Source: Thermoanaerobaculia bacterium (lineage in GTDB: Bacteria > Acidobacteriota > Thermoanaerobaculia > UBA5066). From it: 64,000 nt of DNA. Below the pieces are notes generated by a model that saw only the letters and a program-made list of their open reading frames with translations, made no database searches and was not told where the DNA came from. Every line of letters starts with the position of its first letter. Within the stretch, counting starts at the first letter, position 1. Location of the stretch: contig CAVRAY010000001.1 in the NCBI GenBank assembly GCA_963719225.1, positions 3,584,001 to 3,648,000 on the forward strand. The letters run 5' to 3'. A program made the position numbers and the translations under genes. Below are positions 18,437 to 29,469 of the stretch, piece by piece.

Positions 18437-18934
18437 TCAGTTCGTGATCGGGGACGCGGCGGAGCCGACCGCGCCGTCCTGCGTGTACGAAACCTGCAGG
18501 CACGCGCTGCCGGACGTCGGGTGCTGATAGAGGTACACGTAGTCGAACCCGCCGCCGTCCCGGAGCTTCAGCTCGGCCGGGCGGAAGGAGCCGGACCGGA
18601 ACGCGCGCACGAACCCGGTGTCGTACGGGGGCGTCTGGGAGCACCCGCCGCGGAACTCGCGGACGTTCTCCGTCGGCGCCAGGACGCGCAGCTTCAGGCC
18701 CTGCACGATCCGGGTCGTCTCGTCGGCCGTGAGGGGAAAGGTGCAGGCCCCCGCGCGCAACGTACCGAACATGTGGCATTTCACGCTCGCAAGGGCGACA
18801 TCCTGGCGGGCCATGAGGCTCTTCACGTCGCGCGCGAGGTCTCCGCGCGCCCACAGGTTCCACGCGGCGCGGCATCCGGTCGCGAGCACGACGGCGACGA
18901 GGAGAGCCAGCGGCCTCAGGCGCCGGGATGCCAT
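18437..18934 (-). CDS. Hypothetical lipoprotein
   Basis: Lipobox-like LATGC after a hydrophobic signal; four further Cys residues. Confidence 0.6.
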   Translation of the reverse strand: MASRRLRPLALLVAVVLATGCRAAWNLWARGDLARDVKSLMARQDVALASVKCHMFGTLRAGACTFPLTADETTRIVQGLKLRVLAPTENVREFRGGCSQTPPYDTGFVRAFRSGSFRPAELKLRDGGGFDYVYLYQHPTSGSACLQVSYTQDGAVGSAASPITN

Positions 18935-20868
18935 GCGGCGATTCTGCCCGCCAGGGCGGAGGCGGCGACGACGTACGGACTCCCGAGGTACACGTGTCCG
19001 GGTCCGCTTCGCCCGGGGAAATTGCGGTTGATGGCGCTCACCGTGACTTCCCCGTCCCGCGTCGAGACGCCCGGCCCCGCGTTGATGCAGGCGCCGCAGC
19101 CGGGCTCGACGAGGCGGGCGCCCGCGCGCGTGAAGAGCTCGAGGTAGCCCTTCTCGCGGCACCACTCCTTCACGTGGCGGCTCCCGAACTGGATGTAGAA
19201 GGCGACGCCCGGCGCGACACGCCGTCCCCGGGCGACGCCCTCGGCGAGGACAGCCGCGAGCATTTCCATGTCTTCGCGCTTGCCGGCCGTACAGGAACCG
19301 GCATAGGCGATGTCGATGGAAATCGGGAGTGGGAGGTCGGAGATCGCGACGCCGTTTCCCGGATCGCCGGGCAGCGCCACGATGGGAGCGAGCGCGCCGA
19401 CGTCCAGGACGAGCTCCGAATCGAACACCGCGTCCTCGTCGGACGCGAGACCTTCGCAGGCGCGCCGTGCCTCGTCGAGCGACGTTTCCCGCCGCTCGAC
19501 GAGGAAACGCGCCGTCGTCTCGTCGGGGGCAACGATGCCCGAGAACGCTCCCGCTTCGGCCGCCATGTTCGTGAGCGTGGCCCGCTCGTCGACGGAAAAG
19601 GCCGTGACCGCTTCGCCCGAGTACTCGAGCACTTTTCCGATCGCGCCGCCGCCTTTCACGTAGGGGTGCGCGAGAAGCGCGAGCATGACGTCCTTGGCGG
19701 CGATGCCGTGCGGCCGCGCGCCCTCGAGGACGACGCGGATCGTGGCCGGGACCTTCACGCGCACGTCCCCCGAGAGCCACGCACACGCGACTTCCGTCGT
19801 GCCGATCCCGAAAGCCAGGCAGCCGAGCGCGCCCGCGTGTGTCGTGTGCGAGTCGGACCCGACCACGACCTGCCCGGGAAGGGCGTGGCGCTCGAGGACG
19901 AGGGAATGGCAGATGCCCTCGCCAGCCCCGTAGAGCCGGACGCCCTGCGCGGCCGCGAACTTCTCCTGCCGCGTCGCGAGCGAATCCGCGAGTGCGAGGA
20001 GGCCGCGCGCTTTCCGTTCCTCGGGCATGACCTCGCCCAGGAGGGAAAGGTGATCGCGAAAGAGAAGGACGGAGCCGGGATCCTCGACGCGCGCGCCCGT
20101 CCCCAGCTCTCCCTCGAAGCACGCAGCCGCCATGGGCGTGACGTACTCGTGCGAGAAGCGCAGGTCGGCCCGCACGAAGCACGCGTCGCCCGGCTCGACG
20201 GCGGGGACTCCCGTACCCGCCGCAGCCGGGTCCCTGACGACGTGACGCGCGAGGATCTTCTCGACGAGCGTCATCGCGCGGGGCGGAGTCGTGACGGGCG
20301 CGGGCGACTCGCGGCCCGACAGACGCGCGCGCGTGTAGGGAAGGAGTCCGCCCGCTTCGATCACGTCCCGTGTGATCGGGTCCTCCCCTTCCGTGAAGAA
20401 GGAGAGCGGAATTTCCCGGCCTTCCCGGACGCGCTCGAGAATCGAGAAATCCGTCGTCAGGAGCATTCCGAGGTTGATCGCGTTCTGCCGATAGATGCGC
20501 TCGAAGCTCTCGGCCACGAGGAGGCGGATGCCGGCGGCTCGCTCCGCGTAGGGCGCCTGCTCGCGGGACGAGCCCTTGCCGCGCCTGCGCCCGGCCACGG
20601 AGACCGCGAACCCCCCACGCCGCACGGCGTCTTCTCCGACCGGCCGCACGCCGTCACGGCAGGTCAGGCCGAGGTAGGCGAACCTGCCGAGCGCGGCGTC
20701 GTGGTGAAAGCACGTCCAGCCCGGCGTGATCTCGTCGGTCGAGACGTCGTCGCGCAGCTTCTGCGCCGGGTCGTTCGCGTCCCACGCGAGGTCCTCCCCT
20801 GCGAACTGGCGCGCGAGGAGACCGGCGTCCTCGGTCAGAAAGAGGATTCGGCCCGAAATGAGCACCAC
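18916..20868 (-). CDS. Aconitase-family hydro-lyase with fused small (swivel) and large subunit domains (LeuD+LeuC-like)
   Basis: N-terminal 'STDEITP', 'GSSREQA', 'FERIY'; C-terminal 'DH', 'GSDSHT', 'GSCT', 'PGCGAC', 'NRNFPGR'. Confidence 0.85.
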   Translation of the reverse strand: MVLISGRILFLTEDAGLLARQFAGEDLAWDANDPAQKLRDDVSTDEITPGWTCFHHDAALGRFAYLGLTCRDGVRPVGEDAVRRGGFAVSVAGRRRGKGSSREQAPYAERAAGIRLLVAESFERIYRQNAINLGMLLTTDFSILERVREGREIPLSFFTEGEDPITRDVIEAGGLLPYTRARLSGRESPAPVTTPPRAMTLVEKILARHVVRDPAAAGTGVPAVEPGDACFVRADLRFSHEYVTPMAAACFEGELGTGARVEDPGSVLLFRDHLSLLGEVMPEERKARGLLALADSLATRQEKFAAAQGVRLYGAGEGICHSLVLERHALPGQVVVGSDSHTTHAGALGCLAFGIGTTEVACAWLSGDVRVKVPATIRVVLEGARPHGIAAKDVMLALLAHPYVKGGGAIGKVLEYSGEAVTAFSVDERATLTNMAAEAGAFSGIVAPDETTARFLVERRETSLDEARRACEGLASDEDAVFDSELVLDVGALAPIVALPGDPGNGVAISDLPLPISIDIAYAGSCTAGKREDMEMLAAVLAEGVARGRRVAPGVAFYIQFGSRHVKEWCREKGYLELFTRAGARLVEPGCGACINAGPGVSTRDGEVTVSAINRNFPGRSGPGHVYLGSPYVVAASALAGRIAAWHPGA

Positions 20869-20933: not shown

Positions 20934-21374
20934 TCACCGCCGCGGCGCCGTCGGCGAAGGGCTCGGCGTCTGGCAGGGCGCGGAAGCAGGAGTCAGCACC
21001 TCGACGGGGATGCGGTCGTAACCCGCGACCTCGACGGGATAACGCAGCCGCAGCTCGCCCTTGCCGACGGGCGCCTCGGCGTCGATCTTCAGCGCGAGCG
21101 TCAGCTGCGGCACGGGAAAGGAACGGCGGCTGGCGAGGTGAACGCTGACGCCGGGCAGGGAAACCGGCTCGACGCGGTCCGCGTTGTCGACGCCGAAACC
21201 GGTCACGACGAGGTCGAGCGACGTGCCCTGCACGAGCGGCAGGGTCCGGCCGGGCCCGAAGCGGCGCCCCCCGCAAAGCGACGCCGCCCCGAAGGATTCC
21301 ACGGCGCCCGTCACATCCGACATGGACAGGAGAAGCAGGACGAGGCAGGTGCCCGCCGCGAGAAGGCGCTTCAC
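20934..21374 (-). CDS. Secreted hypothetical protein, single beta-sandwich-like domain
   Basis: GTGA overlap start; signal peptide; similar to the N-terminal domain of 28477..29469. Confidence 0.65.
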   Translation of the reverse strand: MKRLLAAGTCLVLLLLSMSDVTGAVESFGAASLCGGRRFGPGRTLPLVQGTSLDLVVTGFGVDNADRVEPVSLPGVSVHLASRRSFPVPQLTLALKIDAEAPVGKGELRLRYPVEVAGYDRIPVEVLTPASAPCQTPSPSPTAPRR

Positions 21375-22639
21375 GGAGTTCCCTTCGGCGGCGCGGTGAA
21401 GCGCAGCTCGGCGGCTCCGCTCGCGGCCAGCGTCTGGCCGTCCGTTCCGACGGCTTCCACCGTCCAGGTCAGAACCGAGTCCTTGGCGCGGTCCTGGAGA
21501 AAAGGCGGCGCCGCGTACGAGTCGGTCCCGGGAGCGAGAAGCGCCTCGAGGAGAACGGCTCCATCCGGACCCCGCACGACGAGCCGGTAGCCCGCGGCCG
21601 ATCCGACGCGCGTGAAGCGGAAGACCACTCCTTCGCCGGCCGGAAGCAGCGACCGATGGGCGGGCGCGAGGAGGATCAGGCCGCCCGTGGCTCCCGGGAG
21701 GAGCGCGGCGGGCGCGACTCCCACGAAGTAGCGGAGCGTCGGAAGAGGGAAACCCGCGACGGAGGCGGAGTGGATCACCCCGGCGCCCGCGCCGATCGCC
21801 GCAAGGCTCGAGTCCCCTTCCTTGTCGTCGGACGCCTCGATGCGCAGCAGGATCTGGTGCAGCCCTTCGGCGGCCGTGGGAATCCTCTTCGGGTCCGGGC
21901 CCGGCAGCGTCACGCGGCCCGTCGGCGGCAGGAACACGTCGAACCGGTCGAGCTCGGTGTAGCGGCGCTGGAGCGGACGCTCGGCCGGAGGGAGCGTCGC
22001 CTCGGTCAGGAGATCGCGGTCCGTCGGCGGCTCGTCCTGCGGGAACACGACTTCCCATCGGCCCTTGAGGCGTCCCGTCCCCGTGTAACGGATGTCGGCC
22101 TTCAGCTTCGGGGCGATCTCCCCGCGCTGTACGGAGAGAACCGGGCGGTCGATGTCGAAGGACAGCGTGACGTCGGTGAGCGAGAGCGGCGTCCCCGCGC
22201 CGCCGAACGACGGCCGGCACGTGACGAAGACGTACTCGTCCGGGCCGCCCGCCATGGAAGCGAACCGGCGGACGTAGAAGAACGGCGAGAGCGCCCCGCG
22301 CTCGGCGGCCTGATAGGCGCGCCGCGCCACGTTCGCGGGGATCGTCATGATGTCGGTGTACACCCCGCCCGCGAGGCGGGACTGGTCGTAACGCAGCGGA
22401 AGCCGTCCGTAGACCGTGTTCGGGTCGCACCGAAAACCGATGTCGGGCGTCGCCGGGATGATCTCTCCGCACCACGTGGCCTCGACCGGGGTCTGGTTCA
22501 CGAGGCCCGCGAACGTGATGAAGACGGTTGTGGAGCTCTGGCTGCTGACGTTCACGCCCGTGGGATTGCGCTGGATCGCGCCCTGCGCGGAAGTCCCCGC
22601 CAACAGGATCGGAAGGAGGAGGTGGAGGCGGTATCGCAT
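21371..22639 (-). CDS. Secreted/periplasmic hypothetical protein (multi beta-sandwich)
   Basis: Signal peptide ending AQG; beta-rich; operonic with the beta-barrel gene. Confidence 0.7.
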   Translation of the reverse strand: MRYRLHLLLPILLAGTSAQGAIQRNPTGVNVSSQSSTTVFITFAGLVNQTPVEATWCGEIIPATPDIGFRCDPNTVYGRLPLRYDQSRLAGGVYTDIMTIPANVARRAYQAAERGALSPFFYVRRFASMAGGPDEYVFVTCRPSFGGAGTPLSLTDVTLSFDIDRPVLSVQRGEIAPKLKADIRYTGTGRLKGRWEVVFPQDEPPTDRDLLTEATLPPAERPLQRRYTELDRFDVFLPPTGRVTLPGPDPKRIPTAAEGLHQILLRIEASDDKEGDSSLAAIGAGAGVIHSASVAGFPLPTLRYFVGVAPAALLPGATGGLILLAPAHRSLLPAGEGVVFRFTRVGSAAGYRLVVRGPDGAVLLEALLAPGTDSYAAPPFLQDRAKDSVLTWTVEAVGTDGQTLAASGAAELRFTAPPKGTP

Positions 22640-22648
22640 CGTTTCGTC

Positions 22649-24736
22649 CTAGAAGGCGCTCAGGCTGATCCCCGAGGAGACCACCCACGTCTTACGAAAA
22701 GTGACGACGCCGAGCACGACGTCGCGCGTCCGCGTCTCCTGGAAGGCGTAGCGCAGCAGGATCTGTCCCGTGATCCCGCGCTTGCCGCGCCGGGGCGGCT
22801 CGAACCGCCAGGCCGTCTGCGCATCCACGGTCCAGGTACGGGAAGACGCCGTGTCCGCGTCGTTTCCGCCGTCCGTCCGCGAGGCATTCGTCGCGAACGA
22901 CAGCGGCGGGAGGGGCCGGAGTCCGAACGTCACCTGATAGCGCTTCGTGCGGTCGACGTTGCCCGTCTCCTTCGCGGCTGCGCGTTCCCACCCGTACTGG
23001 AGAGCGAGGTCGACGGCCGGGGAAGGCGTCAGGTTGAACGAGGCGACGTTCGCCGTGTTGAGGAAGTCCGCCGTCTCGCGTCCGACCTGCCGGTTGTCCT
23101 GATCGGAGTAATTGAAATGCCAGCCGAATCGGGCGGGGCCGGCGGTCCAATCCACTCCGGCCGTCTGGCCGAGGCTCACCTGATCGGGCAGTTGAGTCGG
23201 CGAGAAGCCTCCTCCTTGCGGATCGTTCCCCGCGAACTGGTGGGTCTCGTTCACGCTCCAGCTCAGCTGGGGCAGCCACCAGGCAGGCGCCGGGCTTCCT
23301 CCCAGCGCTCCGAGCGGAACGGCGAACTGCCCCGCGGCTCGCCGCGTCCTGGTCTTGAGGATCGAGGTGAGATCCGCCAGGTTGTCCTCGAGCCACGCGT
23401 ACGAAAGCTGAAGGGCTGCCGGTCCGAAGGCGGCGTTCGCCTCGAGGACGTCCTGCTGCTGGTCGGACTGTAGGGTGGCGGCCACGCTCCGGTACTGGGG
23501 ATCGATCCGCTCCCGTCGGTACCCGAGCGTGAACGTCACCGGGGTCGACGGACCGAGCGTGACTCCCTTCAGGACGTCGACGTTCGCCGTGGCGAAGTAG
23601 GCCGAGCGCCACGTCGGCGCGAGGGGAACGACCTTCGCTCCCTGCTCGAGCAGCGGATCCGGCGGCGCCTCGAAGCGATTCCGGGAATATCCGCCCTCGA
23701 CGCGGAATCGGCCCGAAAAAAGGCTCGACGCGAGCGAGACACCGCCGCCGCGGCTCGTCTCGGCATCCGACACGGAGCCGCGGTTCACGCTCGTGCGCGG
23801 CAGGAGGGACCCGTCGACGAGCGTCGTGTCGACGTGCAGCGTGCCCGGAGCCGACGGAACGAGCTCGAGCCCGAGCGTCCCGGAGTAGACGCGATGCTCC
23901 GCCGTCTCGAGGCCCAGGAAATTGTCCCATCCGACGATCGACGTTCCGTTCAGGGCCGCCAGGGACAGCGTCACCGGGCCCAGGGAAAAGGCGGCCCTCC
24001 CTCCCCGGCTGTTGAAACCGTTGATGAGGTGCCGGGAAGCGCCGACGCTGAGGCTGCCCCACTCGAGAGCGGCCCCCGGGACGGCGAGCTTCGTGGCCCA
24101 GCTCGCGAGGTCGACGCGGTCCGCATCCCGTCCGCGCTCTCCGAAGCGCAGCGCATCCTCGGCACGCTGGGCGCCCAGCACGCCCATCTGGAAGGCGAAC
24201 GTCGCCTGCGATCGGGCGAGCTCGACGCCGAGGCTCGCCTGGCCGGTCAGGTCCTGAAATGTCCGCCGGGGCGGGGCGGCGTCCTCGAGCGCGTGACCTT
24301 CCGAGAGCTGCCCTTTCAGCGTCAGGTCGATCTTCGGGGCGATCTCCGCCTTCTCGAAACCTCCCACGGTGAGCACCCGCAGCTTCAGCCGCGCGACTTC
24401 CTTCCATCCGGAGCTCGACACGAGCGTCACGACGATCTCCTGCTCGCCCGACGGAAGGGGGGCGAGCTTCGGCAGGTATCGCCGGCCCCGCGGCGAAACT
24501 TCCAGGAAATCGGAGACGTCCGTTCCGCCGATCAGAACCGCGATCCGCCCTTCCGCGTCCGCCGGCTCACGCGAGAGCACGAGCTCCACCGGATCGCGCC
24601 TCCGGATCCAGTCCTGGCCCCGGCCCCCGAGTGTTACAACGAGGTCGTCGGCCGACGACGACGAACCGAGAAGGCACAGAACGACGAGGCCCATCGCGTA
24701 CCCGGATCGGGAGCCTGACCCGCAATCCCGCCTCAT
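22649..24736 (-). CDS. Uncharacterised outer-membrane beta-barrel protein
   Basis: Signal peptide; alternating amphipathic beta-strand pattern over the C-terminal two-thirds; terminal beta-signal-like 'GISLSAF'. Confidence 0.7.
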   Translation of the reverse strand: MRRDCGSGSRSGYAMGLVVLCLLGSSSSADDLVVTLGGRGQDWIRRRDPVELVLSREPADAEGRIAVLIGGTDVSDFLEVSPRGRRYLPKLAPLPSGEQEIVVTLVSSSGWKEVARLKLRVLTVGGFEKAEIAPKIDLTLKGQLSEGHALEDAAPPRRTFQDLTGQASLGVELARSQATFAFQMGVLGAQRAEDALRFGERGRDADRVDLASWATKLAVPGAALEWGSLSVGASRHLINGFNSRGGRAAFSLGPVTLSLAALNGTSIVGWDNFLGLETAEHRVYSGTLGLELVPSAPGTLHVDTTLVDGSLLPRTSVNRGSVSDAETSRGGGVSLASSLFSGRFRVEGGYSRNRFEAPPDPLLEQGAKVVPLAPTWRSAYFATANVDVLKGVTLGPSTPVTFTLGYRRERIDPQYRSVAATLQSDQQQDVLEANAAFGPAALQLSYAWLEDNLADLTSILKTRTRRAAGQFAVPLGALGGSPAPAWWLPQLSWSVNETHQFAGNDPQGGGFSPTQLPDQVSLGQTAGVDWTAGPARFGWHFNYSDQDNRQVGRETADFLNTANVASFNLTPSPAVDLALQYGWERAAAKETGNVDRTKRYQVTFGLRPLPPLSFATNASRTDGGNDADTASSRTWTVDAQTAWRFEPPRRGKRGITGQILLRYAFQETRTRDVVLGVVTFRKTWVVSSGISLSAF

Positions 24737-24746
24737 CTGACTTCAG

Positions 24747-24773
24747 AGCGCAATTCGGTGCGAAACCGGCTCA
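24747..24773 (-). promoter_or_regulatory. Putative ECF-dependent promoter A (TGAGCC-N15-TGCGCT)
   Basis: Same bipartite motif and spacing as at 27864-27890; lies 10 nt upstream of the beta-barrel ATG. Confidence 0.6.
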
Positions 24774-24798
24774 CCCCCGCGGCTAGAATCTGCGCAAC

Positions 24799-25368
24799 GT
24801 GCCGGAGACAGGAGCCGTGACGCGTCTGCTCTTGCAATGGCGGGCAGGCGAGGAAGCCGCGTTTGGCGAGCTCATGGAGCTCGTCTATCGGGATCTCCGC
24901 CGGCGCGCCGACGCCTACCTCAGGCGCGAGCGCGCGAACCACACGCTCGCGCCGACGGGCCTCGTGCACGAGACGTATCTCAAGCTCGTGGGAGACGCCG
25001 GCATCCCCTGGAGCGATCGCGCGCATTTCTTCGCGGTGGCCGCTCGCGCCATGAGACAGATCCTGGTCGACCACGCCCGAAAGCGGTCCGCGGCGAAGCG
25101 GGGCGGCGAGGCGGAGCGCGTCACGCTGACCAACCTCGCCGCGAGCGGCGGTGAAATGAACGTGGATCTCGTCGCTCTCGACGCCGCCCTCGAGCGCCTC
25201 GCCGCGCTCGACCCGGTCCAGGCCCGGCTCGTGGAGCTGCGGTACTTCGGCGGGCTCACGATCGAGGAAACCGCCGACGTGCTGGGTTCATCGCCGGCGA
25301 CGGTCAAGCGCGCCTGGGCGTCGGCCCGCGCCTTTCTTTTCGCGGAGCTCCGAGGGGAGCTGACATGA
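24799..25368 (+). CDS. ECF sigma factor, Ser/Thr-kinase-associated (ECF43/EcfK-like)
   Basis: 'VTRLL..W..G', 'HTLAPTGLVHETYLKL', 'RAHFFAVAARAMRQILVDHAR', 'ELRYFGGLT..ETA'; overlaps the kinase start. Confidence 0.92.
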   Translation: MPETGAVTRLLLQWRAGEEAAFGELMELVYRDLRRRADAYLRRERANHTLAPTGLVHETYLKLVGDAGIPWSDRAHFFAVAARAMRQILVDHARKRSAAKRGGEAERVTLTNLAASGGEMNVDLVALDAALERLAALDPVQARLVELRYFGGLTIEETADVLGSSPATVKRAWASARAFLFAELRGELT

Positions 25369-27866
25369 GCCTCGATCCGGATCGCTGGAGTGAGGTGCGA
25401 AGGCTTCTCGAGGAAGCGCTCGAGCGGGAGGGGGCGGACCGGGACGCCTTCCTGAACGATCTCGGATCCCGCGACGCCACGTTGCGCGAAGAGGTCGGCC
25501 GCCTCGTGGCTTCGGCCGAAGGGGCGGATGGTTTCCTCGAGGGTCCCGTGCTCCAGCCCCCCGACGACGAAGACACGCTTCCCGCGGGAACCGTCCTCGG
25601 TGCCTGGCGCGTCGAACGTGAGATCGCGCAGGGCGGCATGGGTCGCGTGTTTCTCGCCGTCCGCGCAGACGGCGCGTTCCAGCAGGAAGCGGCCCTCAAG
25701 GTGATCTTCTCCGGGCTCGGAGGCGCCGCCATCGGAAAACGCTTCCGGAACGAGCGCCAGATTCTCGCCGGCCTCGAGCACCCGAACATCGCGCGGCTTC
25801 TCGACGGCGGGACGACGCCCGACGGGCGTCCCTTCTTCGTCATGGAGTACGTCGCGGGCGAGCACCTCCTCGAGTACGCCCGCCGTCAGGCCCTGTCGGT
25901 CGACGAAAAGGTGGCGCTCTTCCGGAAGATCTGCGGGGCCGTCGCCTACGCGCACCGGCACCTCGTCGTTCACCGGGATCTCAAGCCCGGGAACATCCTC
26001 GTGACGAGAGAGGGCGAGCCGAAGTTGCTCGACTTCGGGCTCGCGAAGGTGCTCGATCCGGCCGGATCCGAGCTGACGCCGGGCGCCACGGGGGCTCTCG
26101 GGCGCCTCATGACTCCCGAGTACGCGAGCCCCGAACAGGTACGAGGGGACTCGATCACGACGGCGAGCGACGTCTACTCCCTCGGCGTCGTCCTCTACGA
26201 GCTCCTCGCGGGCCGGCTGCCTTTCGTCTTCAAGGGCCGCTCGGCCGAGATGATCGCCCGGACGATCTCGGAAGCGGAGCCGCCCCGTCTCGGAAGCGGC
26301 ATCCCCGAGGATCTCGAGAGTGTCGTCGCCATGGCGCTCCGGAAAGAGCCCGCGCGAAGGTACGCGACCGTCGAGCAATTCTCGGGCGACCTGGGCCGGG
26401 TGCTCGAAGGCCTTCCCGTGACGGCGCGGAAGGACACGTTCCTCTACCGCGCGAAGAGGTTCGCGGGACGCCATCGGATCGCCATCGTCGCGACGGTCGG
26501 ATCCCTGGTCCTCCTCGCCGCTTTCGCCGCGGTCGCCCTCGTGCAGGCGCACGTGGCCCGGCTCGAGCGCGAGCGCGCCGAGCGGCGGTACGCGGACGTC
26601 CGCGCCCTCGTGAAGTCCTTCCTCTTCGAGCAGTACGACGCCATCCAGAACCTGCCCGGGACGACACAGGCGCGCGCGCTCCTCATCCGCCGCGCTCTTG
26701 AGCAGCTCTCGAACCTCGAGAAGGAGGCCGGCTCGTCCTTTCCGCTCCGCGGCGAGATGGCGGAAGCGTACGAGAAGCTGGGGGACGTGCTCGGAAGCGG
26801 CGTGTGGTCGAGCCTGGGCGACACGGCGGGCGCCCGCGACGCTTACGGGAAAGCCCTCGCTCTCCGCGAAAGGATCGTCGCGGCGTCGGGCTCGACGCCC
26901 CGGGACCGGGACGACCTGGCGCGCGCCGAGATGCGTCTCGCGAGCTTCCTGTCCCGCTCGAACGAAACGTCCGAGTCCCTTCGGCATGCCCGCCGCGCCG
27001 TGGAGATCCGCGAAAAGCTCGACCCCCGCGCGAACGTCGGCGAAGGGAGAGCCGGGCTCGCCGCCGCCCACCATCTCCTCGGCTACACGCTATCGCGAAC
27101 CGGCGACTTCCGGTCTGCCCTGGCGGCGCATCGAAAAGCCGAATCGGTCTTTCGAGAGGCGTTCGTCGCGAATCAGAAGGACGAGGCCGCGCGCAGCGGA
27201 ATCGGCAAGGCTCTCTACGATCAGGCGGCGATGCTCTCGCGGCTGGAGGAGCCGCGAGAGGCTCTCGAGAAAGGAAGGGAGGCGCTCGACTGGCGGCGCC
27301 AGCTCCAGAAGAGCGACCCCTCGAATGCCCGCACGCGGTTCGAGCTCGCCGCCAGCCTCCACGACGTCGGCGAGTTCCTGGCCGACGTCGACGAGATGCC
27401 CGAAGCGCTCGACAAGGTCCGGGAAGCCGCACGGATCGTCGAGGAGCTCGCGGACGCGGACCCGAAGAGCACGTACCTGCAGATCGCGCGCGCGAACTAC
27501 CGCTCTTCGGTGGGCGACGCCGAGCGGAAGGCCGGCGATCCTCTTCGCGCGCTCGAGAGCCAGCGCATCGCGGTCGCCGTGATGGAGCAGGTCGTCGACG
27601 CCGACCCGGATTGCGGCTTCTGCTGGATCTCGCTCGCGAAGATCTACGACGCGGCTGGAGATGCGCGACTAGCGGTCAAAAAGCCGGTCGCCAGCGTCTC
27701 CGCGCAAGCCGTTCCGTGCGACTTCTGGAGGAAGAGCGGCGAGATCTGGGAACGCCTCCAGGCGGCGGGGAAGCTCCCCGGCGAAGACGCTCCGGCGCGC
27801 GACGCCCTTCTCGCGAAGGTCGCGTCCTGCGCCCCCGGCCGGACGGCCGCTGCACGCCCGCGCTGA
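25365..27866 (+). CDS. Membrane Ser/Thr protein kinase with C-terminal TPR-like repeats
   Basis: GGMGRV, HRDLKPGN, DFG, YASPEQ, DVYSLG; one TM helix followed by helical repeats. Confidence 0.93.
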   Translation: MSLDPDRWSEVRRLLEEALEREGADRDAFLNDLGSRDATLREEVGRLVASAEGADGFLEGPVLQPPDDEDTLPAGTVLGAWRVEREIAQGGMGRVFLAVRADGAFQQEAALKVIFSGLGGAAIGKRFRNERQILAGLEHPNIARLLDGGTTPDGRPFFVMEYVAGEHLLEYARRQALSVDEKVALFRKICGAVAYAHRHLVVHRDLKPGNILVTREGEPKLLDFGLAKVLDPAGSELTPGATGALGRLMTPEYASPEQVRGDSITTASDVYSLGVVLYELLAGRLPFVFKGRSAEMIARTISEAEPPRLGSGIPEDLESVVAMALRKEPARRYATVEQFSGDLGRVLEGLPVTARKDTFLYRAKRFAGRHRIAIVATVGSLVLLAAFAAVALVQAHVARLERERAERRYADVRALVKSFLFEQYDAIQNLPGTTQARALLIRRALEQLSNLEKEAGSSFPLRGEMAEAYEKLGDVLGSGVWSSLGDTAGARDAYGKALALRERIVAASGSTPRDRDDLARAEMRLASFLSRSNETSESLRHARRAVEIREKLDPRANVGEGRAGLAAAHHLLGYTLSRTGDFRSALAAHRKAESVFREAFVANQKDEAARSGIGKALYDQAAMLSRLEEPREALEKGREALDWRRQLQKSDPSNARTRFELAASLHDVGEFLADVDEMPEALDKVREAARIVEELADADPKSTYLQIARANYRSSVGDAERKAGDPLRALESQRIAVAVMEQVVDADPDCGFCWISLAKIYDAAGDARLAVKKPVASVSAQAVPCDFWRKSGEIWERLQAAGKLPGEDAPARDALLAKVASCAPGRTAAARPR

Positions 27867-27890
27867 GCCTCTTCCGTTCCGGAATGCGCT
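27864..27890 (+). promoter_or_regulatory. Putative ECF-dependent promoter B (TGAGCC-N15-TGCGCT)
   Basis: Overlaps the kinase stop codon, upstream of the two secreted-protein genes; matches promoter A. Confidence 0.6.
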
Positions 27891-27933
27891 TCTCTCCACA
27901 GAAGGCCCCGAAAACGGGGAGAAGGAGAGAACG

Positions 27934-28461
27934 ATGAAGAAGAGCTGTACGACCCTCGCCCTCGCCGCCCTCGTGGGTCTCGCGCTCGCGCGCCCCGCCG
28001 CGGCGCAGCCGAAGCCCCGGACTTTCAACCCGATCGACGTGAAGGCCGCCTTGAAGAAGGCCGTCGACGCCCAGTTGATCGACTTCGGAAAACAGTTCCC
28101 GCATCTGAAGCTCGCGAACCCCTGCACCACGGAGTTCAACAACGCCGTCGCCGCGGCCAAGGCCGAGCAGACGGGGTGCCTCGACAGCAACAACCCGCCC
28201 GCCGGCAGTCCGCTCGCCGCGTTCAACGCGCTCAGTAACGCGCAGCTCGCCCAGAAGTGCGGCAACCAGACGCTCGACGCGTGCGTCGACGCGGTCGTCA
28301 AGGAGCAAGCGAAGTTCTGCGCAAAGGAGCGCGCCAAGGAGGTGGCCAAGGCCAAGAGCGTCCTTTCGAGGTGCTGCGCCCCTCTCGCCAAGCAGAAGGC
28401 GGATCTCGAGAAGCAACTGGCGGACATCACCGCCGATCTGCAGGGCTGCCTCGGACACTGA
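27934..28461 (+). CDS. Secreted Cys-rich alpha-helical hypothetical protein
   Basis: AGGAG RBS, signal peptide ending AAA, 8 Cys in the mature part, helical/coiled-coil composition. Confidence 0.75.
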   Translation: MKKSCTTLALAALVGLALARPAAAQPKPRTFNPIDVKAALKKAVDAQLIDFGKQFPHLKLANPCTTEFNNAVAAAKAEQTGCLDSNNPPAGSPLAAFNALSNAQLAQKCGNQTLDACVDAVVKEQAKFCAKERAKEVAKAKSVLSRCCAPLAKQKADLEKQLADITADLQGCLGH

Positions 28462-28476
28462 GAACAGGAGGTTCCC

Positions 28477-29469
28477 ATGAACAGAAGGCTCACGTCCTAC
28501 GGACCCGCGCTTCTCGCCCTCGTGGCGGTTCTCGCCGCCCTTCCGGCCGCGGCCACGATCGACGTCATGTACGTCACTCACACCTCGGGGCCCGCCCTCT
28601 GCAACAACTTCACGACGAACAACATCGACTACGGCCGTTTCATCTCCTCGGGCGACCGGATCACCGTCGCTCGCGACACGACGTTCCGAGTGACCCTCCT
28701 GGGGTTCGGAGCAGACCTCGCGACGGGGACGGACGACAACGTCACGGGCCTTCGTTCGGAAATCGTCGCCCACGGCACGACGGACAAGCCCGGCGGCGGC
28801 GTCCATTTCGGCCAGAAGGACCAGACCGGCTACGTCCGCGTCGAGATCCGCGTGCACACGGCTGAGCTCGGGAACGGCCACGTGACCGTCAAGTGGCTCA
28901 CGGGCACCGAGAAGATCCCTCTGAAGATCGTGTCCTCCTGCAATCCCACCCCGACGCCTGCGCCGACGGTCGCGGCAACGCCGCGGCCGATCTCGCGCAT
29001 TCCCGTCGCGGGCTCTTCCGCGCCTCCGACCCTCCTGCCCGACCTCACGCCGACGGACTTCGTCAACTTCCGGACGTGCAACCCGAGCTCGTTCGGCACG
29101 TGCGTCCCGGGCCCGAACGACTGCAACGGCGCGTTCAAGGGTCAGAGGAAGTTCACGCAGCCCGACTTGCAGTACGGCGTGAGGAACATCTCGGGAGTCC
29201 CGGTCACGACAGCGTTCACCGTCGTCCTCAAGAAGAAGGACGGGTCGACGCTCGCGACGAACCCGGTGCCCAATCTCGCCGCGAACGGGACCGCCACGTT
29301 CACGTTCCACCGGGCCAACTCCAACGTCTGCGTCGAGCAGATCGGGCCGAACAAGGTGTGCACCTACTGCGCCGTCGCCATCGACGACGCAGGCATCGAG
29401 GTCGTCGTCGACTCCAACAACACGGTCGCCGAGGCCAGCGAGACGAACAACAGCCGAAAGATCCAGTAG
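28477..29469 (+). CDS. Secreted protein: N-terminal beta domain, PT linker, CARDB-like domain
   Basis: AGGAGG RBS, signal peptide; 'LPDL' and 'VVVDSNNTVAEASETNN' CARDB signature. Confidence 0.8.
   Translation: MNRRLTSYGPALLALVAVLAALPAAATIDVMYVTHTSGPALCNNFTTNNIDYGRFISSGDRITVARDTTFRVTLLGFGADLATGTDDNVTGLRSEIVAHGTTDKPGGGVHFGQKDQTGYVRVEIRVHTAELGNGHVTVKWLTGTEKIPLKIVSSCNPTPTPAPTVAATPRPISRIPVAGSSAPPTLLPDLTPTDFVNFRTCNPSSFGTCVPGPNDCNGAFKGQRKFTQPDLQYGVRNISGVPVTTAFTVVLKKKDGSTLATNPVPNLAANGTATFTFHRANSNVCVEQIGPNKVCTYCAVAIDDAGIEVVVDSNNTVAEASETNNSRKIQ

Follow-up and report, generated by a model that had tools for sequence, protein, structure and literature searches.

Background and description of the locus

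Few routes are known by which folded proteins cross the outer membrane. In Slam/type XI secretion systems (T11SS), two-partner type V secretion systems (T5SS) and curli (CsgG/E/F), a pore gene lies beside the Sec-exported cargo; in LptD/LptE, the outer mouth of the barrel is capped and a partner occupies the lumen, and MtrB, in the MtrAB arrangement, also hosts its partner in the lumen. We analysed a 64,000-nucleotide stretch of the genome of a Thermoanaerobaculia bacterium (Acidobacteriota; assembly GCA_963719225.1, contig CAVRAY010000001.1, positions 3,584,001 to 3,648,000 of the forward strand; hereafter the window), in which positions 20934–29469 encode seven proteins, among them a predicted outer-membrane beta-barrel and its exported partner. 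The conserved core of this locus is two genes, not seven: the barrel and partner genes, strictly linked and belonging to no named family, form a real, widespread and undescribed outer-membrane module.

The locus also carries a sigma factor of the extracytoplasmic function (ECF) group ECF43 and a Ser/Thr kinase, a module that belongs to an already known kind. As in EcfK–PknS of Xanthomonas and EcfP–PknT of Vibrio, a PF07638 sigma factor with the sigma2.2 Thr is directly followed (position +1) by a kinase with one membrane helix and tetratricopeptide repeats (TPR). The group is defined in PMC7826278 and its supplement. According to PMC13147305, the Thr at the site equivalent to Thr53 is phosphorylated in EcfK and EcfP, and a type VI secretion system is among the known outputs of such modules. 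Further known outputs are other stress genes, whereas the putative output here is the outer-membrane pair with its payload, the name given below to the variable secreted neighbours.

An ECF sigma factor and a TPR-bearing kinase between two sets of exported-protein genes had been described in a first-pass annotation made from the sequence alone; all seven open reading frames (ORFs) that it claimed are confirmed at the stated coordinates. With two promoter-like motifs, the features are:

20934–21374, minus strand: variable payload gene on the partner side, 146 amino acids (aa), secreted, single immunoglobulin (Ig)-like domain; its family adjoins the pair in 13 loci, this window included
21371–22639, minus strand: core gene 2, the partner, 422 aa, Sec signal, three predicted beta-sandwich domains, two highly conserved and the third fibronectin type III (FnIII)-like (AlphaFold2 (AF2) model, adjacency)
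22649–24736, minus strand: core gene 1, 695 aa, predicted 26-strand outer-membrane beta-barrel with an N-terminal Ig-like domain and a C-terminal Phe (AF2 model, couplings, C-termini of homologs)
24747–24773, minus strand: ECF-type promoter-like motif TGAGCC-N16-GCGCT ahead of the barrel operon (motif scan)
24799–25368, plus strand: ECF43-type sigma factor, 189 aa, sigma2.2 Thr53 (PF07638, TIGR02999)
25365–27866, plus strand: Hanks-type Ser/Thr kinase, 833 aa, one membrane helix, predicted periplasmic TPR sensor (Pkinase and TPR matches)
27864–27890, plus strand: the promoter-like motif again, overlapping the stop codon of the kinase gene, ahead of the rightward payload genes (motif scan)
27934–28461, plus strand: variable payload gene, secreted Cys-rich protein, 175 aa; its family adjoins the pair in 5 loci (this window and 4 others)
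28477–29469, plus strand: variable payload gene, 330 aa, Ig-like N-domain, Pro/Thr linker, CARDB-like C-domain (CARDB match, domain comparison)

For the barrel, Met15 (24694, 681 aa) is the probable start, in agreement with the public gene call. No Pfam or NCBIfam family scores above its cut-off for the 146-, 175-, 422- or 695-aa protein, and neither barrel nor partner has a meaningful match among Protein Data Bank (PDB) sequences. The relatives found in the ESM Atlas fall in unnamed clusters only, and ten homologs that were looked up bear the name "hypothetical protein" or none. The locus is flanked by the genes of an aconitase-family protein and of a UvrD helicase; no GC anomaly was found across it, and close homologs of its proteins are labelled Thermoanaerobaculia. 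In the aconitase-family protein (18916–20868), the small Aconitase_C domain is N-terminal to the large domain.

The barrel and the partner are strictly linked

A partner profile scan of the GTDB species genomes gave 372 related stretches, of which the best 80 were analysed. The barrel gene is upstream and on the same strand in all 80 of these loci, whose titles all indicate metagenome-assembled genomes and whose hosts are Acidobacteriota (several classes), Gemmatimonadota, Lysobacterales, Steroidobacterales, Burkholderiales, KSB1, Rhodothermales and others. Reciprocally, among 80 barrel-anchored metagenome loci, the partner is downstream in 64/64 informative ones, the remaining 16 ending at a contig edge. 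The neighbourhood survey of barrel homologs proposed in the first-pass annotation thus reveals co-occurrence with the 422-aa partner.

In 401 genomes of the phylum, a count that takes in this genome (G000) and G024, both profiles recover an identical set of 12 strong loci, distributed over 11 genomes; no match to the pair is found in three genomes belonging to the same genus. The pair is intact in 14 of 14 re-fetched loci, which partly overlap these 12, and in the case of an apparently unpaired barrel, the partner is found 1.7 kb further on, past an inserted gene. The barrel is matched in 8/301 genomes of the phylum of G401 and in 7/301 of the order of G402, and the pair is present in only 2–3% of the sampled Acidobacteriota, Gemmatimonadota and Lysobacterales genomes. 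No match to the pair was found among the plasmids and viral contigs searched. In the related locus L002:1680-9626, the kinase and barrel frames are both interrupted, through decay or assembly error.

The breadth of the family is considerable, a mixed barrel profile recovering 798 clusters (50% identity) at an E-value of 1e-30, 1,317 at 1e-10 and 1,855 at 1e-3. Even a distant subfamily of about 17–22% identity retains the barrel–partner order (L106:9708-12898, L107:2645-5904, L110:7016-10287 and L108:8097-11450). Its partner is devoid of two long insertions in domain 2; one of its pairs stands behind a CARDB protein, and a shared secreted protein of 472 aa precedes the pair in L107 and L110.

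Predicted structure of the pair

The 695-aa protein had been annotated as a beta-barrel. The AF2 model indeed consists of an N-terminal beta-sandwich of about 92 residues followed by 26 strands, with a mean predicted local distance difference test (pLDDT) score of 90.7. This model is independently backed by covariation in 418 sequences, since 33 of the top 100 couplings link neighbouring strands (background, about 3%); the couplings L115–S659 and D108–S664 connect strand 1 with strand 26, closing the barrel. The chain terminates in the last strand, with F or Y as C-terminal residue in 100 of 110 homologs, and the model contains neither an internal plug nor C-terminal domains. Among homologs, the linker that follows the N-domain can be as short as 9 or as long as 144 residues, and the N-domain itself gives a weak CopC-like match (E 0.012).

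Conservation of the barrel is asymmetric. The long loops are all on the predicted outer side and carry most of the invariant residues (30/147 positions in outer loops versus 5/55 in periplasmic turns), and the same is observed in the strands, with 26/178 invariant positions in their outer halves versus 6/186 in their periplasmic halves. Loops L3, L5, L7 and L9 couple with strands distant from their own base, suggesting a cap that closes over the mouth or reaches into it.

Fold searches with the barrel return generic large barrels. The best match is MtrB (Z 16.9, root-mean-square deviation (rmsd) 6.7, 449 residues aligned, 6% identity), after which unrelated barrels rank at Z 14–15; the lowest rmsd among whole-barrel matches is that of ushers (FimD, Z 14.3, rmsd 5.2, 364 aligned, 12% identity; PapC, Z 13.3, rmsd 5.8, 368 aligned). 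The barrel also holds a G-x(12-13)-RG motif that may resemble an usher motif.

The partner, initially described as a periplasmic beta protein, is modelled as three beta-sandwich domains (pLDDT 85) behind a Sec-type signal peptide without lipobox, and its sequence is devoid of CXXCH motifs. Domain 3 is FnIII-like (Z 11.2, rmsd 2.1, 88 aligned) and dominates the whole-partner fold searches, whose matches say little on a PapD-like fold of domains 1 and 2. No other part of the system is as well conserved as these two domains, whose mean pairwise identity is 63%, compared to 38% for the barrel at the same loci. Domain 1 has three invariant Cys, one of which is also retained in part of the distant subfamily without the other two. 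No fused form was found among 7,988 longer candidates, which is a weak test. Covariation between the two proteins, computed on 158 paired loci, was too shallow to serve as evidence: 9 of the top 100 intra-barrel pairs are neighbour strands and the top inter-chain pairs look clade-driven.

Comparison with described systems

The pair resembles the chaperone–usher systems FimC/FimD and PapD/PapC in having a large barrel to which an Ig-like N-domain is tethered, a multi-Ig partner and Sec-exported Ig-type neighbours. Ushers, however, have 24 strands, a plug and two C-terminal domains, whereas the barrel has 26 strands and neither of these, and here the partner has three domains and no pilin is conserved. 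Membership of the fimbrial ushers is rejected on these grounds and in the absence of a PF00577 match, with hhalign probabilities of at most 2% against FimD and acidobacterial ushers; a PapD-like chaperone is also rejected at the level of sequence, none of 110 partner homologs matching PapD families (hhalign below 1%). The absence of likeness to chaperone–usher components noted in the first-pass annotation stands up to profile tests. In this genome, PF00577 matched only at a separate locus; a PapD/usher locus lies at G000:C1:3693405-3696121, about 45 kb past the window end.

MtrB, the best fold match, is alike as an unplugged large barrel that could host a partner, but at 6% identity, and no cytochromes are found among the recurrent neighbours; a porin–cytochrome complex of the MtrB/PioB type is rejected, the partner being devoid of multihaem CXXCH motifs. 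A TonB-dependent transporter, for which 22 strands and an N-terminal plug are expected, is rejected in view of the 26 strands, the beta-sandwich N-domain and the lack of a Pfam match. Slam/T11SS, T5SS and curli differ from the pair, which has no POTRA, TPR or CsgG family match, a much larger single-chain barrel, an obligate three-domain partner and interchangeable putative cargo.

The pair shares 26 strands with LptD (bioRxiv 10.64898/2026.03.07.710327), from which it differs by being accessory and patchy, by an Ig-like instead of a jelly-roll N-domain and by a partner that is not a lipoprotein. LptD membership is rejected at the level of sequence, no Pfam, NCBIfam or PDB sequence match having been found; the 50 fold matches listed for the barrel do not include LptD, which says little either way. 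The same preprint notes other 26-stranded barrels, and its supplement may include unannotated members of the family. These comparisons place the barrel outside the families tested, its best fold match being generic. No description of the pair was found in the literature, in a search that left out most subscription journals.

The neighbours of the pair are variable and often carry predicted signal peptides

Neighbours were called with a simple gene caller, co-oriented genes being grouped into families, and signal peptides of soluble proteins were called by a hydropathy heuristic. The co-oriented neighbours differ between loci and form many small families, often as paralogous arrays. Signal-peptide proteins are enriched beside the pair: 31/44 of the genes directly upstream versus 50/181 elsewhere in the same loci, and 29/50 directly downstream versus 64/244, that is, overall rates of 58–70% against a background of 26–28%. 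At least one such neighbour is found in 48 of 51 well-flanked loci, and in L052 and L210 payload genes lie between barrel and partner. When 133 of the 168 neighbours collected (within three genes of the pair, 100–700 aa) were scanned against Pfam, most had no family, the recurrent ones being CARDB, TIG, Big, CarboxypepD_reg and Calx-beta; some were plainly unrelated housekeeping genes.

The 146-, 175- and 330-aa proteins are variable members of this payload and not, as first supposed, fixed components of the system, the neighbours varying among loci. Of the "Cys-rich helical" label given to the 175-aa protein, the first half is confirmed by its nine Cys, the second being a sequence reading; its family has no meaningful match among PDB sequences. 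The 330-aa protein, labelled a CARDB-type adhesin, barely passes the CARDB threshold (24.0 bits for a cut-off of 22.7) and is at most a putative adhesin. A domain shared by the 146-aa protein and the N-terminal part of the 330-aa protein had also been noticed: both are distant relatives as judged from their 21% identity, a score reached by 1 of 1000 shuffles. The 330-aa protein thus joins a distant 146-aa-type domain to a CARDB-like domain that is common to that family. Against PDB sequences, the payload profile matches IcsA at E 0.00095 over 88 positions.

In 181 genomes, strong payload-profile matches are found in G000, G041 and G084, all with the pair, and in G108. As G041, G084 and G108 are all of one family, this co-occurrence is weak. 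In both G041 and G084, the payload-family match and the pair are on different contigs; the gene of G041 (L261:8159-9325) stands alone amid metabolic genes.

Regulation of the locus

The ECF43 identity of the sigma factor and its retained Thr, both claimed in the first-pass annotation, are well established (PF07638, E 2.9e-54; TIGR02999, 216 bits for a cut-off of 126), the A-P-T53-G of its TLAPTGLVHE segment aligning with the place of the QTTA consensus. The kinase has Pkinase and TPR domains, intact HRDLKPGN and DFG motifs and one hydrophobic helix at about 371–390. An ECF43 gene is found within 7 kb in 24/146 loci, or 16/75 when at least 7 kb of upstream DNA exists, which is enriched over the roughly 2% expected from the seven other ECF43 genes of this genome, yet a minority of loci. 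At other loci, wHTH (winged helix-turn-helix)-TPR, BTAD-TPR or CHAT-TPR proteins stand in place of the ECF43–kinase couple; in 62 of 64 nearby proteins of the TPR/kinase cluster that were scanned, there are 20 Pkinase, 13 CHAT, 12 Trans_reg_C (wHTH) and 6 BTAD domains. The ECF43–kinase couple is thus a swappable regulator outside the definition of the system, and its status as a fixed component is ruled out by the 16/75 loci and the other regulator classes.

In this genome, the proposed control by ECF43 and kinase nevertheless fares better. TGAGCC-N16-GCGCT occurs exactly twice in the window, once ahead of the barrel and once ahead of the 175-aa gene, for 0.09 occurrences expected, and it recurs ahead of barrel or payload genes in L001, L002, L052, L125 and L179. 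When the genome is scored with a matrix built on seven sites from other loci, three sites stand out at 28.5, 27.4 and 22.8, the next being at 16.0. The strict motif is present in 4/6 ECF loci whose sigma-4 helix reads SPATVKR versus 1/18 others. Local ECF control of the flanking units is therefore supported, at the level of sequence, because the same promoter-like motif precedes both of them and one distal secreted-protein gene. The predicted TGAGCC/GCGCT promoter differs from the GTC/CAG listed for proteobacterial ECF43 in the PMC7826278 supplement.

The third site (C1:1913794), 1.7 Mb off, is part of a near-identical copy of the whole leader of the 175-aa gene, before a secreted DUF11 protein. 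The region, G000:C1:1913794-1916380 (L265:795-3381), lies outside the window; in it, the promoter and ribosome-binding site are copied together with the leader, ahead of this unrelated protein of 838 aa, in what looks like a duplicated expression cassette. The seven other ECF43-type genes (G000:C1, near 361754, 532193, 1538129, 2280957, 2468136, 2600788 and 3173048) are mostly followed by a kinase and flanked by secreted proteins, without a barrel. TGAGCC/TGAGGT-like motifs are also present ahead of secreted-protein genes near 2465711 and 2600718.

Proposed mechanism and alternative explanations

All these observations give about an even chance that the pair builds an inducible outer-membrane machine for the export or surface display of the adjacent secreted proteins, which would here likely be switched by ECF43. 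By analogy with other ECF43 modules, a periplasmic signal at the TPR domain of the kinase could lead to phosphorylation of Thr53 of the sigma factor, which would then recognise TGAGCC-N16-GCGCT ahead of three units: the barrel operon, the payload genes on the right and one distal secreted-protein gene. Barrel, partner and payload would reach the periplasm, since they carry Sec-type signal peptides, and the Cys-rich payloads may form disulfides there. The barrel, as modelled, would insert as a closed 26-strand pore without a plug, its conserved outer loops capping the mouth and its Ig-like N-domain held on a variable linker. We infer that the partner could enter the lumen from its periplasmic side and dock against the capping loops, serving as both plug and cargo adaptor, and that small folded Ig-type payload domains could traverse the pore, to be released or retained on the cell surface, with adhesion or antagonism as their probable role. 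Across lineages, payloads and regulators would be exchanged while the pair stays constant.

Several observations weigh against this export machine. The poorly conserved periplasmic face of the barrel is a poor fit for a rim-docking chaperone. No common terminal or export signal was seen when looked for among the payloads, whose apparent fold classes differ, Cys-rich proteins devoid of Ig domains being among them. By the heuristic used, signal-peptide neighbours are absent from 3 of 51 well-flanked loci, and G108 (83% complete), one of the three other genomes with a strong payload-family match, has no barrel that could be found. As to regulation, two source loci of the promoter matrix are close relatives, and the density of the strict motif in ECF43 loci (7 in 394 kb) is only about 2.4 times that found elsewhere (13 in 1,772 kb). 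The C-terminal part of the DUF11 protein resembles other secreted proteins of this genome far from the pair, and, as the third promoter site precedes such a protein, co-regulation does not make a protein cargo.

The pair could alternatively be a remote, plug-less relative of chaperone–usher pili, the partner acting as a PapD-like chaperone, the barrel as an usher and the Ig-type payloads polymerising into a fibre. The tethered Ig domain, the multi-Ig partner and the low rmsd of the FimD and PapC matches speak for it, but profile–profile probabilities do not exceed 2% against ushers or reach 1% against PapD chaperones, the model has 26 and not 24 strands and is devoid of the plug and C-terminal domains, no conserved pilin is found among the neighbours, and the genome has a separate PapD/usher locus; we thus consider this pilus unlikely. 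Slightly less credit still is given to a receptor or an uptake/signalling complex, in which the partner would be a lid or insert, the payloads interchangeable binding proteins, and the barrel N-domain a relay of occupancy to the TPR sensor. The conserved outer loops, the membrane-linked sensor or regulator genes present at 5 kb or less in most loci and the match to MtrB, which hosts its partner in the lumen, are all compatible with it. The model, however, has no TonB-receptor plug, lipobox and haem motifs are absent, regulators are of unrelated classes, the seven other ECF43 genes come without a barrel, and neither catabolic nor energiser genes recur among the neighbours.

A self-contained surface or envelope structure, with the partner itself displayed or polymerised and the neighbours merely co-regulated and leaving by another route, appears just as improbable as the receptor. 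It would account for the partner being the most conserved component, for payload-family genes found unlinked and for a distal regulon gene without obvious tie to the pair; it is less easily reconciled with secreted genes being strongly enriched next to barrel and partner, and even found between them, or with strong payload-family matches lying mainly in pair-bearing genomes (G041 and G084, two of three besides this genome, all of one family).

Significance

The export machine favoured above could represent an undescribed secretion class, which we hold slightly less probable than not: a single-chain, 26-strand, loop-capped barrel with an obligate three-domain plug and adaptor, carrying folded, disulfide-bonded and interchangeable cargo without a shared signal, and encoded by a two-gene cassette that has spread through several diderm phyla with few cultured members and is coupled to any available envelope sensor. 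If true, this would add to the few ways by which folded proteins are carried over the outer membrane, with only two genes for the machine and a cargo that can be swapped. Such a machine could be reconstituted in a laboratory strain, and the family, whose roughly 800 sequence clusters are labelled hypothetical in all sources consulted, would receive its first function. The locus moreover supplies a testable promoter consensus and a regulon of three gene units for acidobacterial ECF43, in a group with two studied members.

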